Assembly: GCA_964270895.1 (NCBI GenBank)
Contig: OZ185437.1
Length of the DNA: 64,000 nt
Direction: 5' to 3' (one strand)
Origin: Podarcis filfolensis
Lineage: Eukaryota
Under the pieces are notes generated by a model. It had not been told where the DNA came from. It made no database searches and worked only from the letters and a program-made list of their open reading frames with translations. Numbering within the stretch: the first letter of the stretch is position 1; each line of letters opens with the position of its first letter. This document shows positions 15,747-62,717 of the stretch, in pieces. The position numbers were made by a program, and so were the translations under genes.

Positions 15747-15797
15747 GTAGGTAGGTAGGTAGGTAGGTAGGTAGGTAGGTAGATAGATAGATGATAG
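15747..15797. repeat. (GGTA)n/(GATA)n compound microsatellite, interrupted by an LTR (continues 16429-16440)
   Basis: Directly visible. Confidence 0.9.
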
Positions 15798-16428
15798 TGT
15801 GATGGCCTGGGACTTGGGCTCAGGCTCGGAACCAGAGGAGACTCAGTCTGCACCGGATCCTTTGTCTCAGGCATCATCTGAACCAAGTCTGGGGCCTGAT
15901 CCTGGAGAGTCCCAGTCTGCACAGGTTCCCCTGCAACAAGCACCAGCTGGGCCGAGTCAGGGGCCTGAGCCTGCCCTGGCTCCAGATGCGGGGATTACCT
16001 CCTTACCCTCTGCTGGGCCATCACTTACAGCTGCTCCACTACCGGTTTGGTCAGGGGAGGCTGAGGCAGCCCCTTGGTCTAGTAACCCACCAACGTCTCC
16101 CGATCTGCAGAGACTGAGGTCTGAGAGAAGGAGAGACCTGAGTACTCACAGGAGGATTGCTCACTTTTGGGAAAAACAGGGAGGTGAGTTGCCGGGGGAT
16201 CAGGACCGGCCGCTACCCCGACAAAGATAAAAGGCTGTCGGACCCTGCCCCAGGTTGTGGGAATAACATTGCTGTATGCTAGATCCTGTCTGAGATCCTG
16301 TACCTGACCTTGCCTGGTTTCCTGCCTCGTGTCCTGCCTTGGCCCGGCTGGACTGACTCCCAGCAGAACCTTTGGATTCTGGACCAGTCCTGGACCGTGT
16401 TTCATGGGTTACCCCCGGGCCCAGCACA
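15798..16428 (+). mobile_element. Solo LTR, family A copy 1 (probably Gypsy-type)
   Basis: TG...CA termini (TGTGATGGCCTGG...CAGCACA) and flanking GATAG/GATAG, though the site is a GATA repeat. Homologous to 62112-62687. Confidence 0.85.
15802..16230 (+). CDS. LTR-embedded ORF, 142 aa, acidic/Pro-rich N-part and Arg-rich C-part (hypothetical retrotransposon accessory protein)
   Basis: Open from ATG at LTR nt 5 to TAA in GATAAAA. Homologous in frame to 62116-62478, with a synonymous-biased conserved block. Confidence 0.55.
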   Translation: MAWDLGSGSEPEETQSAPDPLSQASSEPSLGPDPGESQSAQVPLQQAPAGPSQGPEPALAPDAGITSLPSAGPSLTAAPLPVWSGEAEAAPWSSNPPTSPDLQRLRSERRRDLSTHRRIAHFWEKQGGELPGDQDRPLPRQR

Positions 16429-17569
16429 GATAGATAGATAAAACTACCTATCTATCAGTCCCACCCCAGTGATGATCTATTGGCCTGATCTTCTGGAACT
16501 CTTTCAGTCATGAACTTATGTCCAACTGCAGTACTTCCAAGGTAGCTTACAGCTTAGATGGTAGAACTAATGAAGACAAGAGGACAAAACATTTTACAGC
16601 AATGACTTAAATACCCCAGTAAAAAAATGATTCAGGTAGAACTAACTTTATTTACCAGAAATTTATCCTAGCTGGAAGTTCAGAGAGATAGTTTTAAAAA
16701 AAAGTTATTGCAATTGCCATAGCACTGAGCTTTAAATTAAAATGCAAGCTGCACTGGTCATGGGTCTATGCTGTAACTCAAGAGAGACCTGCAAAAGGTC
16801 TGACACTGAGGATGGGCTTGTGGCTTTGGCATACATTCTTTCTAGACATCGTCAACTTGTACCCTATTGCTTCTGTTAGGTCTCTGACCAAACAGAGATC
16901 CCCTTTCATGAGGCACATGTGACTTTTCTTTGACTGTCAGCGCTTACTCAGTGGTTGGGGTACAGGAGGAAATGGATGTGCTGACTGAAGTCAAGATGGT
17001 TTGAAGACCATGCATAACCTGAGCAAATTCAAGGCAAGTGTTTCAGCCGTCTTTAGACTCACAGGCTTGTGATATTACTTTCAGTAGCTATTAATGTGCA
17101 TGGAATTGCTGCTAGGAGCAATGGTAAGGAAGGCTTTTCAGCACCATCTAGTGTAAAGACTGTGACCCTGAATTTGGGTCTGACAATCATGATTCATACT
17201 TTTGTAAACTTGAGAGAACAAGACTAAATTGCAATGTGCTGTGCTCTCAACTGCCTTTGAGGGCTATTCCAAAACTGTGGTTCTGAATAGTAAATAAAAA
17301 TGAAAAAACCCACTGAAATGCTAAGTATTGTTTTTAGTATTGATTGTTGGGTTCCACAAACCCATCACACGAGTGCTTCTGTGACTGTACTGGCTCCCTG
17401 TAATTTTCTCAGTACTATCCAAGAGACGTGTATCGATATATAATCCCTTGCGGTTTATGCCTCAGGTAAGACAGTTTCTTCTCTTATGTCTCACTGTGAT
17501 TTCTAGGGCCAGTTCACACATTATATGGTGGAGTTGTGAAACAACTGCAGGTATTCCTCAATGAGACGG

Positions 17570-26047: not shown

Positions 26048-26289
26048 TGTATAGACTAGGTAAAACAGCAACAACTCACACTTATTTAAAAGGGAGTGGA
26101 GAAAAAGGAGTAAGAAACAGAAATTAACTTTGGTGGGAGTGGAGCATTCAGAGTCTCTTTGACCTGGTAATAATCCTGGGTAATTGTGGCAAGTGTTGCG
26201 GTGAGACCTGGAGACTGACCTCCTGTGTTGTGGGTGGGTTGAATTGGTTAGCCACAACACCCGATTGGTAGGTCCCTCGAAGTTGTGTT

Positions 26290-27510
26290 CAATCTGGCCC
26301 CGGGGTACATCAGTAAATGATGCTATCCCTCCTGAGTTGTGTTCTGTCAAGTATGCTGCCTTTGACCAAGCGATCAGGCTGATCAGGAGCTTTGGGAAGG
26401 GTGCTCTTTTGGTGAAGTGTGATATGGAATCTGTGTTCCGCTTACTTCCTGTCCATCGACTTGATTTTAAGTTGCTTGGCTTCCAACTGTACGGAGCGTA
26501 TTATGTGGATAAGGCCATGCCAATGGGCTGCTCTATATCTTGTGCAGCTTTTGAAGCCTTTAGTACATTTTTGGACTGGGCCTTGCGTACCAAGACAGGT
26601 TTGAGGGGTGTGACCCATTACTTAGATGACTTTTTACTAAGTTCTGCAGCCAATTCTGAAGAATGCTTGCTATTGCTGCATGCATTTAATGAGCTAACCA
26701 AGGAGTTGGGTGTTCCCTTGGCGGAAGATAAAACTGAAGGCCCAGTCACGAGGTTGTCTTACCTTGGAATCCAGTTGGATACTGTGGCACAAACTTCCTC
26801 TTTGCCTGAAGGGAAATTGGTGGCATAATGAGTGACATCATTATGGAGTTTTTGCCATGGGAAAAGGTTACCTTGAGGCAGATTCAGTCTCTGTTGGGCC
26901 ATTTGAATTTCGCTTGCAGGGTGGTTGCCCCTGGTCGCCCTTTTTGCACATGCTTAGCAAGACTTTCTGCAGGCTGTGTGTTTGCCCAGCGAGTTTAGGG
27001 CAGACCTCGAGGTATGGCTCGAATTCCTGAAGGAGTTCAATGGCGTATCCTTGTGGCAGGATACCTTGAATCTGCATTTTGATTTCCAGGTCCATTCGGA
27101 CGTTGCTGGATTCTTGGGTTTTGGGCTCTATTTCTGTGGCTGTTGGTACACTCAGCAGTGGCCTGAGCATTGGCAGGGTACAGCCATTACCTGTGATTTA
27201 ACGTTTCTTGAGTTTTCCCCATTGTAGTAGCAGTGTACATCTGGACCATGGAGTTCAAGGACCGGCGGGTCTGTTTCTGGTCCGATAACCAGGCCGTGGT
27301 GAGCGTTTTGGCAAGGCAGTCACCACGCTCCAGCAGAGTCTCTGCCCTTTGTGCTGCGGTGCCTCAAGTTTAATATTGTGTTTTCTGCCCAATTTATTCC
27401 TGGCACTACTAATGACATTGCTGACGCCCTATCCTATTTTCAGATGGAGCGCTTCAGACCCCTGGCTCCAGATGCCCAGCAGCTTCCGGAATATTTCCCT
27501 GTTCAGCTTT
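26290..27510 (+). pseudogene. Ngaro RT + RNase H (frameshifted)
   Basis: PRGTSVNDAI, KCDMESVFRLLPV, MPMGCSISC, HYLDDFL, LSYLGIQLDT; RNase H motifs VHSDVAG, FWSDNQAVV, IPGTTNDIADALS. Confidence 0.9.
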
Positions 27511-28430
27511 GGAACCTTGGCAGCAGCTAGTCCTTCAGGGAGTAGTAGCTTCTGTTTCTCCTTCCACTTTGAGGTCCTATAAGAAGGCCTGGATGGACTT
27601 TTTAGCTTTCAGAGCAGAGCACTTGATGATTGACAGTTCAGTGTCACCATCCACACATCCGGTGTTGCAGGATCTGGCTCACCTGTGGTTTCTGGGTCGT
27701 GCTGTAAAGTCTATCAGAATTCAGTCTTCTGCTATTTCATTTTTCAGCAAATCCCTATATTCTAGAGACCCTTGTGCAAAGTTTGTAGTGTGCAAGGCTC
27801 TCGAGGGTTGGGTCAGGTTGCAGCCACCAGCATCGCCAGGTAGGAGGCCAGTCACATTTGACATTTTATTCTCGGTGCGCAGCAAGACTTGTCTGCTGGT
27901 CTACTTATGAGGCGAGACTCTTTGCGGCAGCTTTTTCGATAGCCTTTTTCAGTGCACTGCGTGTGGGCAAAGTGGTGCTGGAGTCAGCACAGGGAAGGGC
28001 TCCCAGGAGCTTGCTTTTGCAGGACGTTAAGCCTTTTGATGCTGAGCTGGTGCTCACTATTTGAAATTCCAAAACGGACCAGTTGAGCAGAATCGCCTTG
28101 ATGAGGCTGTCTGCCACTGGTAAGCCTGGCCCTTGTCCAGTGAAAGATGCCAAGAGATATTTGTCACTTCGCCCGCCTGGGGATGATCACTTCCTGGTTC
28201 ATGAGGATGGGTCCCTGTTAAAGAGGCATCAATTTGCTGCAGTAATGCACAAGGCACTTGCAGCGTGTGGCCTGCTGGCCAGTGAGTTTGCACCTCATTC
28301 TTTCCGTATTGGTGCAGCTACTACTGCTGCAGACTGGGGTCTGTCCGTCGACAGGATCAAAGATCTGGGCTGCTGGAAATCTGATGCATACAGGGGCTAT
28401 GTTCGGCTGTGGCACAGAGGTGCAGTTATT
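27509..28430 (+). pseudogene. Ngaro tyrosine recombinase (frameshifted)
   Basis: SPSTLRSYKKAW N-terminal region; catalytic-type motifs FSALRVG, PHSFRIGAAT and LGCWKSDAYRGY. Confidence 0.9.
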
Positions 28431-28454
28431 AATGTAGTTTTGTTCACTCCTATG

Positions 28455-29462
28455 TCCACCTACCCTGCACGTCTGGATAGTTGGGCACAGCATTGCCCAC
28501 TGGGCCGGCAGGAGGGTGGCAGAGTCTGGATTCGGACGCAGGCTCAGACTCCCCGACCATGTGTGTGTCTCTTGGGTGTCCAGATGAGGAATGCGTTGGG
28601 AGGAGCTTCTCCCTGTTAAAATTCATCTTGTTTGTTTTGGCCCAGTTCTCTAATCTGTCAAGGTCGTTTTGAAGTGTGATCCTGTCCTCTGGGGTGTTAG
28701 CCACCCCTCCCAGTTTGGTGTCATCTGCAGATTTGATCAGGATGCCCTTGAGTCCATCATCCAAGTCGTTGATAAAGATGTTGAATAAGACAGGGCCCAA
28801 GACAGAACCCTGTGGCACCCCACTAGTCACTCTTCTCCAGGATGAAGAGGAACCATTGATGAGCACCCTTTGGGTTCGGTCAGTCAGCCAGTTACAAATC
28901 CACTGAGTGGTAGCATAGTCAAGACCGCATTTTACCAGCTTCTTTACAAGAATATCATGGGGCACCTTGTCAAATGCCTTGCTGAAATCAAGGTAGGCTA
29001 CATCCACTGCGTTCCCTTCATCTACCAGGCTTGTAATTCTGTCAAAAAACGAGATCAGGTTCGTCTGACATGACTTATTTTTCAGAAATCCATGCTGACT
29101 ATTGGTGATCACAGCATTCCTTTCTAGGTGCTCACAGACTGTTTGCTTAATGATCTGCTCCAGAATCTTCCCTGGTATTGATGTCAGACTGACTGGGCGG
29201 TAATTATTTGGGTCCTCTCTTTGGTCCTCTCATTGGCATGGTAGCCAATGCCCAGCTGCCACCGAAAGGTTCCAGGAGGCATGTGCAGAGCGCAGTGGTC
29301 AAGAAGGTTCTGGCCATGGGCAGGACGGTGATCCGTCACCCGGGCATTACCTTCCGTGATGCGTCCCTTTACAGGCTTGGTGGGGTTCATCTATCTGTAA
29401 TTGGGAATGATTTGTGGCTGACTGCCATGTCAGCGAGGTTAAGGGGTTGGTTACAGGTGTGA
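28455..29462 (+). pseudogene. Ngaro SGNH-type hydrolase ORF, split by a CR1 fragment
   Basis: 5' part VWIVGHSIAHWA...SR*GMRWEELLP (block I-like GHS at 28483-28491, TGA at 28585). 3' part IRHPGI...LYRLGGVHLSVIGNDLW (block V-like) ends at 29462. Confidence 0.75.
28607..29222 (-). mobile_element. Internal CR1 RT fragment without a 3' tail
   Basis: Open frame KREDPNNYRPVSL...SQHGF...YLDFSKAFDKVPH...SGVPQGSVLGPVLFNIFINDL...SADDTKL...MNFNREK. Confidence 0.95.
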
Positions 29463-61620: not shown

Positions 61621-62111
61621 ATGGCTCATAATATAGTTGTACTACAAAAGCTAAGCAAGCCCACTGCTTCTGTAAGGTGCCTAGTGTAGTCATACATAAA
61701 TCAGTCTGATGGATGCAAGTCTACTCCTTAGAGGAAGAATTAAGATGATCTAATTTAATTGATGGTTTAATAATGTGTTTTGATGCTTTTGTGGTTTATG
61801 TGAACTGCTTTGGGTAAAGGAGTCAGCATATAGTTAATGTGAATAAATAAAAGAAGTAAGCAAGGGAAGGATGGAAGGAAGACATTCAAGGGAACATAAC
61901 AGACAAGTTCTGTGGGGAAATCTTTAAGGTTCAGTTTAGCCAATTAACCTTACAAGGAGGAAGCTTGAAATGGCCCACTTGTCATGGTCTTCCAGGTTAC
62001 TGCTGTAACATACAGTGATGCACAGTCATCTTTCTGTAGAGGCTGCCCATGCCATTGCTGCCCATTCTTGGCTGTGGTTGGTGCTGGGAGGCCAGTGCTC
62101 CACAAGACATG

Positions 62112-62687
62112 TGTGATGGCCTGGGAATCCAATTCAGAGGCTGAACCGGAGGAATCCCAGCCTGCACAGGAGTCCCCGCCTCCAGGGCCGGCTGAACTGG
62201 GGCAGGGCCTTGATTCTGAAGCGCCTGCACCTGTGCCGGATCCTCAGGAGCAGGCACCAGGTGAATCCACTCTGGCTCCAGAGGTGGTTGAGGACTCAGT
62301 GCCTACAGGTGAGTCCCCCCCCCCTGGGCCCAGTAACCCTTCAGCCTCTCCTGAACTGCAGAGGCTCAGGGCAGAGAGGCGAAGGGAACTGGTTTCTCCC
62401 AGGAGGAGTGCTTGCCTTAAGGCCAGGAGAGGCGGGTCTCCTGGGGGCCGGGACCGCCCCTGGCCTCAGAGAAGATAAAGGCCAGTCAGCCCAGTCCCAG
62501 GTTGCGGGAGCAATGTCGTTGAGTACCTGTTCCTGCCCGGACCCAGACCTGACCCTCCAGTGTTCCTGTCCCCGCCCAGCTTCCTGCTTCAGACCTCGCC
62601 CCGCTCCTTGTGAACTGTTTCCAGGCTAGTGACCCAGGACCGGACTTTGACTACGCCAACGGTAACCTTTCCCCCGGGACCAGCACA
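62112..62687 (+). mobile_element. Solo LTR, family A copy 2
   Basis: TG...CA termini; perfect 5-bp TSD ACATG (62107-62111, 62688-62692). Confidence 0.9.
62116..62478 (+). CDS. LTR-embedded ORF, 120 aa (homolog of 15802-16230)
   Basis: MAWESNSEAEPEESQ...SPELQRLRAERRRELVSPRRSACLKARRGG...DRPWPQRR*; open frame. Confidence 0.55.
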   Translation: MAWESNSEAEPEESQPAQESPPPGPAELGQGLDSEAPAPVPDPQEQAPGESTLAPEVVEDSVPTGESPPPGPSNPSASPELQRLRAERRRELVSPRRSACLKARRGGSPGGRDRPWPQRR

Positions 62688-62717
62688 ACATGGCAGAATG
62701 TGTGGTGATATGAGACA

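Follow-up and report, generated by a model that had tools for sequence, protein, structure and literature searches.

A reading frame in solo LTRs of Podarcis filfolensis as the probable Gag-Pol tail of a Ty3/Gypsy chromovirus with a candidate nucleosome tether

The long reading frames in the two solo LTRs of the analysed window, a stretch of 64,000 nucleotides of Podarcis filfolensis DNA, very probably encode the tail of Pol. The coding signal is real and the stand-alone LTR gene is not, and the arrangement varies one known from plants and leads to a concrete chromatin-tether hypothesis. We lean towards the fuller reading, in which the frame is the C-terminal Gag-Pol (integrase) tail of a self-priming Ty3/Gypsy chromovirus, lies in U3 and carries the motif RRSARL as a nucleosome tether. 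No new gene is then needed to account for the coding signature that solo LTRs carry by the thousand in lizards, and caution is due with ORFs in solo LTRs of chromoviruses, which can be fossils of Pol.

Solo LTRs of the window and selection on their frame

The features of the two LTRs are as follows.

15793..15797: left copy of the 5-bp target-site duplication of the subfamily A LTR; the right copy is 16429-16433
15798..16428 (+): solo LTR of subfamily A, 631 bp, ends TG..CA, of a chromodomain Ty3/Gypsy element
15802..16230 (+): 142-codon frame of subfamily A, filling U3, read as the remnant of an integrase C-terminal tail
16096..16140 (+): conserved basic block with synonymous divergence
16150..16167 (+): RRSARL position in the subfamily A window copy, decayed to RRIAHF
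16226..16231 (+): GATAAA, a TATA-like box with the stop codon of subfamily A, putatively part of the promoter
16257..16266 (+): complement of the primer-binding site known from full-length copies, the predicted transcription start and U3/R boundary (self-priming)
62112..62687 (+): solo LTR of subfamily B, 576 bp, ends TG..CA, with the 5-bp duplication 62107-62111 / 62688-62692
62116..62478 (+): 120-codon frame of subfamily B, the equivalent tail
62401..62418 (+): RRSARL position in the subfamily B window copy, one residue decayed (RRSACL)
62474..62479 (+): GATAAA box with the stop codon of subfamily B
62504..62513 (+): self-priming site of subfamily B and predicted transcription start

Both frames begin at LTR base 5 and stop within the GATAAA box, and in 20,000 base shuffles a stop-free frame of equal length appeared in 0.7% (A) and 3% (B) of cases. 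The 142-codon tail consists of an acidic linker rich in P, S, E and A followed by the basic block. The initial annotation had described two solo LTRs with uninterrupted ORFs of 142 and 120 aa, a length difference that preserves the frame, and a block (16096-16140 against 62347-62391) with 12 of 15 residues identical, 6 of them by different codons. The TG..CA ends and the 5-bp duplications confirm the LTRs, the recount of the block is exact, and the length from ATG to stop is a multiple of three in 108 of 127 LTR copies (main classes 357, 387 and 426 nt); in the LTR part after the stop, the same 127 copies are spread over the three phases as 61/13/53. A first look at the genome gave 1534 (A) and 1991 (B) candidates for the family, of which 40 each were scored. 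A perfect 5-bp duplication flanks 21/30 A copies and 24/30 B copies, and the ORF is still open in 15 of the 30 best A copies and 25 of the 30 best B copies. In subfamily A, a 69-nt internal duplication in the linker (window 15838-15973, +; 23 codons, 75% identical) accounts for much of the linker's extra length.

For the analysis of selection, 129 LTR copies were sorted into six groups, with subfamily A about 34% from the rest; the A and B sets hold the 30 copies that match the respective window copy best and are no random sample, and one 709-nt copy with an insertion and duplicates recognised by their flanks were dropped before grouping. The dN/dS values are Nei-Gojobori estimates (kappa 4, Jukes-Cantor), not codeml, and two blocks of 16 and 33 codons were picked as ungapped. 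Between A and B, the differences in these blocks, counted column by column, are distributed over the codon positions as 11/4/22 (p=0.001), with 20.5 synonymous and 16.5 nonsynonymous differences and a dN/dS of 0.23, and A against each other group gives 0.16-0.24, the SH3-chromodomain part of Pol giving 0.13-0.19 for comparison. The median copy by copy is 0.31 (2310 pairs), and the contrast of the between-group differences with rare variants (60 S/165 N) has a p of 0.0017. The other frames of A against B576 contain stops and show dN/dS of 1.7-7.0, with the exception of the antisense frame that shares the wobble positions (0.42, one stop). When the whole ORF is taken, dN/dS is 0.39-0.46 for A against the rest and 0.60-0.89 between the three younger types, which points to a loosely held linker and a nearly free middle of the tail. 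Rare variants within the groups are neutral in the ORF frame (pN/pS 0.92-1.62), and stops make up 7/191 of them (3.7%) against 3.5% expected. Thus, the frame is under purifying selection between subfamilies and decays neutrally within them, which places the selection in replicating lineages and not in inserted solo LTRs. The purifying selection on a protein that the initial annotation had proposed is therefore supported by the dN/dS of about 0.2 in the alignable blocks; the value near 1 between subfamilies, named there as an argument against it, was not found, and the comparison of all frames that it had suggested shows the excess at third positions in the ORF frame, the other frames being stopped or unconstrained.

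It might be supposed that there is no protein at all and that DNA constraint on a GC-rich promoter mimics coding. The frame is of low complexity, a Pfam scan of both window ORFs returned 0 families, a PDB sequence search with the basic block gave 0 matches, and a search of the ESM Atlas gave no usable match. This explanation is very unlikely in view of the third-position excess, the frame-specific dN/dS, the frame-keeping length classes and the continuity with Pol described below.

The parent element and the Pol-to-LTR junction

A pattern of polypurine tract plus LTR matches 28 places in the genome, 25 of which have integrase-chromodomain sequence upstream, and a pattern of the primer site matches 53 places. 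Full copies are about 5.5 kb long with one gag-pol frame, which fills the internal region of about 4.36 kb and leaves no room for env. Their LTR pairs are 94-99% identical and every inspected copy is damaged; no intact copy of the window's LTR family was seen in the genome, and the internal region of subfamily A was found once elsewhere (locus L092). The domains of protein P0015 follow the order of Ty3 (Gag, protease, RT, RNase H, integrase, SH3, chromodomain), the chromodomain PF00385 at residues 1373-1420 scoring above the cut-off, and the nearest solved relative in the PDB is Ty3 Gag-Pol (E 1e-140), with retroviral RTs scoring far lower. By its LTRs, domain order and chromodomain, the element is a Ty3/Gypsy LTR retrotransposon of the chromovirus type. 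The guess of a Gypsy-type LTR in the initial annotation was thus right, and the full-length elements that it had advised to look for were found. An endogenous retrovirus was also considered and rejected, because env, a tRNA primer site and a retroviral RT were not found. Contig C19 (43 Mb, 3% of the genome) holds 27/53 of the primer-site matches and 16/28 of the polypurine-tract matches; survival of full-length copies there is what might be expected of a low-recombination region such as a W chromosome.

In 21/34 5' LTRs, the best pairing of the primer-binding site is with a stretch of the LTR that lies 30-33 nt past GATAAA, and in a sister family 11/11 nt of the primer site pair with a different sequence. 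This complementarity agrees with the self-priming described for the Tf1/Sushi group (PMC6317226), and would put the start of the RNA at this site. Since the predicted start lies downstream of the ORF, the ORF would belong wholly to U3 and could not be expressed by a solo LTR's own promoter. In two RNA runs there are LTR reads with flanks on both strands, no position where many molecules begin or end, and, at low depth, no splice joints listed; one run has thin coverage of pol, on one strand, with 2-3 reads across the junction. A peptide that solo LTRs produce autonomously or for the benefit of the host would draw on thousands of copies and on these reads of both strands, but it is hardly credible given the neutrality of the rare variants, the bare half of A copies that are open (15/30), the damage to both window copies at the motif and the position of the ORF upstream of the predicted start; for the family as a whole this reading is largely refuted. 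As the tail of Pol, the frame may be understood in the following way. Transcription of the genomic RNA would begin some 30 nt past the GATAAA box in the 5' LTR, and the tail would be translated only from the copy in the 3' LTR, as the end of Pol. Reverse transcription would place a copy of U3 in both LTRs, and recombination between LTRs would then leave thousands of solo LTRs with the frame as a silent remnant.

Continuity of the frame with Pol is seen in database proteins and in some copies of the genome. In two Podarcis muralis proteins (1559 and 1551 aa), gene predictions known as protein only and retrieved with a query that contained the tail, a single frame runs from Gag to the end of the ORF, and 6/7 of the chromodomain-bearing P. 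muralis database proteins are continuous from Gag through chromodomain and polypurine tract into the ORF. In the P. filfolensis genome, 37 junctions of decayed copies could be counted, leaving aside two rows in which no LTR start was recognised and the copies that have lost the anchor: 11 are in frame, 16 have the stop of Pol over the ATG of the LTR and 10 are in the third frame. That no more than 11/37 junctions are in frame is the main point against the tail of Pol. The length differences sit in a homopolymer-rich stretch ahead of the polypurine tract, and the two most frequent out-of-frame forms, with 8 and 7 copies, each lack a single base compared with the in-frame form. On a tree of rough resolution the junction types are dispersed and sister copies differ; the only junction of subfamily A, the outgroup, is in frame. 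With the in-frame form as reference, the one-base loss makes up 907/9997 and 199/7839 of the depth in two short-read runs, which is contig depth and not copy number and may come from other species; the other losses stay under the 8% listing limit in the short-read contigs, and 0/2 RNA reads show the one-base loss. In a very young family a G-run of similar length also varies (4/10 copies, three of them chosen for a short frame). Error of the assembly at homopolymers was considered as the source of the out-of-frame junctions and was not supported, as 6/30 one-base indels lie at homopolymers in 14 internal regions, without general enrichment. The A junction, the scatter on the tree, the short-read depth and the sister families favour the in-frame form as the working state.

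The junction counts bear also on the idea of a separate small protein made by stop-start coupling, with the stop of Pol overlapping the ATG at LTR base 5. The stop over the ATG is the commonest junction class in the genome (15/37 at the modal length, 16/37 in the frame class), all subfamilies retain the ATG, and predictions from Rhineura, Naja, Salvator and Anolis have a Met in the corresponding position. We regard it as improbable, however, because the in-frame form dominates the short-read contigs and the P. muralis proteins, the outgroup junction is in frame, the two leading out-of-frame forms are one base short and dispersed on the tree, and three sister families have no ATG there. Moreover, this ATG lies within the attachment end for integrase, which is under constraint in any case (PMC3601003).

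The initial annotation had proposed that the LTR itself codes for a protein, and had pointed to MMTV Sag. The selection stands and the stand-alone U3 gene does not: the frame continues Gag-Pol (in 6/7 database proteins and in most of the short-read depth), lies upstream of the predicted start and is selected only between subfamilies. The genes for MMTV Sag and lentiviral Nef likewise extend over U3 of the 3' LTR, so that coding sequence reaches both LTRs by copying, and each is a separate gene with an mRNA of its own; unlike them, the lizard ORF is most likely the end of a polyprotein.

The RRSARL motif and predicted nucleosome docking

The linker of the tail carries 12-16 D/E, and its first 62% is free of K and R. 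The basic block closes with RRSARL, which at each of its six columns gives the most frequent residue of every one of the six groups and is exact in 70/101 copies. The CpG-bearing arginine codon decays in inserted copies (RRSACL in 12/101, RRSAHL in 4/101). The motif recurs at the C-terminal end of a chromodomain protein with 47% identity (1/92 tails, 11,008 residues). According to PMC12487698, HMGN proteins bind the acidic patch of the nucleosome by RRSARLSA, and Dsup by PPRRSSRLT. The tail has the HMGN core RRSAR(L), the following SA not being kept, so that RRSARL equals the first six residues of RRSARLSA; its context is likewise disordered and preceded by proline, and the predicted contacts are the same. 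The two differ in that there is no homology outside the motif and that the candidate motif sits on a transposon enzyme. Yeast Dot5 (PMC13347269) is noted beside the HMGN/Dsup nucleosome-binding motif.

A docking model of a 39-residue natural piece of a B copy with H2A/H2B of the same genome scored 0.66 against 0.01 for the best of 3 controls, among which there was no arginine-rich decoy; the runs agree in at least 82% of contacts and the partner pLDDT is at least 63. The mark used is reached by 51/78 solved pairs and 2/108 mismatched pairs, a calibration that does not extend to peptides. The confident contacts of the model join PRRSARL residues to the H2A/H2B residues named for Dsup and HMGN2. 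Because a like complex is already solved and the model may remember HMGN/Dsup-like complexes, the pass shows likeness and not binding. If the frame is the tail of Pol, binding of the tail to the acidic patch is fairly likely. An acidic, disordered linker, predicted at 70-90 residues, would then separate the chromodomain from a basic helix and RRSARL, the last arginine of which is predicted to serve as the arginine anchor in the acidic patch of H2A-H2B. The element might in this way hold the nucleosome at two points, with the chromodomain on the methylated H3 tail and the motif on the face of the disc, and the basic block may double as a nuclear import signal.

A tail of Pol could also serve as nothing more than a nuclear import signal, a basic end that binds nucleic acid or a spacer, with RRSARL held by DNA constraint or chance. 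At the DNA level five of the six RRSARL codons are invariant as well, and a recoded arginine codon was seen in only 2 stray copies and in no subfamily, so a motif of the promoter DNA could contribute. Furthermore, sister families have a basic end without RRSARL, and a C-terminal NLS is established for Ty1 integrase by works cited in PMC3605345. We consider this account unlikely, though of some weight, because of the exact six-residue match to the HMGN core, its recurrence in a distant relative, the modelled docking to the acidic patch, and the CpG-bearing arginine codon, which is preserved between LTRs that diverge by 34% but decays after insertion.

If the motif of the tail does bind, it would be the first acidic-patch anchor on the integrase of a retrotransposon, none having been found in the literature searched, and would give a handle on the choice of insertion sites by vertebrate chromoviruses. 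No report of an HMGN-like motif on a transposon or integrase was found in that literature, the coverage of which excludes older subscription papers and supplements. Viral tethers to the acidic patch are listed in PMC9040877 (foamy virus Gag CBS, KSHV LANA and HCMV IE1). The lizard motif is like these in being a short arginine-anchor peptide and a proposed chromatin tether of an integrating or persisting genome, and unlike them, which sit on Gag or nuclear antigens, in being on integrase and encoded in the LTR.

Related squamate elements and comparison with known systems

In a young sister family (RT 52% identical), Pol reads 100 codons into the 3' LTR in 12/12 copies, with a tail that has no Met, and in two further families Pol likewise runs into the 3' LTR. 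In Vipera latastei, Rhineura floridana, Naja naja and Salvator merianae, predicted proteins have a chromodomain, a junction of the G-D-x-V-M/V type and an acidic tail; being proteins only, their LTR boundary is placed by the junction motif. Five further tails were profiled, and like the two of the window all are acidic first and basic last. The sister-family tails end in other basic motifs, without RRSARL. In fish-type proteins (P0041 of Labeo, P0044 and P0057), the end comes about 20 residues past the junction motif, and squamate tails measure 55-140 residues. A U3 with double duty, as promoter and as protein, would extend across squamates.

Two observations on single relatives may be added. 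The very young chromovirus family of L209-L220 has 409-bp LTRs in pairs 98.8-100% identical, many long open Pol frames, 100 Pol codons in the 3' LTR, a self-priming site and a different basic end motif. The protein P0096 of Rhineura floridana has the same junction, an acidic linker and a similarly spaced basic block, and ends in SLRPKR instead of RRSARL, which we take to be possibly another type of arginine anchor, resembling the motifs of foamy Gag and LANA.

Sister chromoviruses also carry, between the chromodomain and the polypurine tract, an exact match to the LEDGF-binding consensus D/E-x-E-x-F-x-G-F, which is defined in PMC9915587 and PMC8022399. It was found in 10/27 loci scanned:

LEDGF-consensus loci: L197-L200, L206, L212, L221, L223, L224, L227

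A helix with Phe and an S/T-acidic linker stand before the motif, which often occurs twice in tandem; in the young family, Leu replaces the first Phe in most copies, which have a second FxGF. The window's family is without this consensus. LEDGF motifs on a transposon were not reported in the literature found, again outside older subscription papers and supplements. We tentatively suggest, as a possibility below even, that squamate chromoviruses use the end of Pol, in part LTR-written, as a swappable cassette of host-mimicking chromatin tethers, of HMGN type here and of LEDGF type in the sisters, reached independently of the tethers of foamy virus and HIV. If so, promoter and targeting peptide would evolve in the same DNA.

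Among known systems, the gag-pol ORF enters the 3' LTR in the plant CRM group A (with the CR motif in the LTR) and in Bingo1-4 and 7 of the Reina clade, and the LTR-encoded part of CRM is a proposed targeting domain (PMC3059260 and PMC3605345). As in these plant chromoviruses, the lizard Pol frame extends past the polypurine tract to a stop within the 3' LTR, and the duplication is of 5 bp; unlike them, the element is of an animal and self-priming, not tRNA-Met-primed, and it adds 120-142 residues that fill all of U3. Ahead of the tract it has retained a canonical chromodomain, as Reina has and CRM A has not, and this chromodomain and the self-priming site exclude it from CRM group A. The lizard element resembles the Tf1/Sushi group in its single gag-pol frame, integrase SH3 and chromodomain, self-priming site and the lack of any env seen (PMC6317226 and PMC3601003 for that group), and differs from the fish-type proteins by its long tail. 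A Pol that enters the 3' LTR in vertebrates was not reported in the literature found; older surveys of Tf1/sushi elements and chromoviruses and Repbase reports, which may mention such an overlap, lie outside this coverage.

The window also contains, at 26205-28616 (+), broken frames that resemble reverse transcriptase and tyrosine recombinase. We presume that they belong to an element of DIRS/Ngaro type, interrupted near 28453-29229 by a CR1-like fragment.
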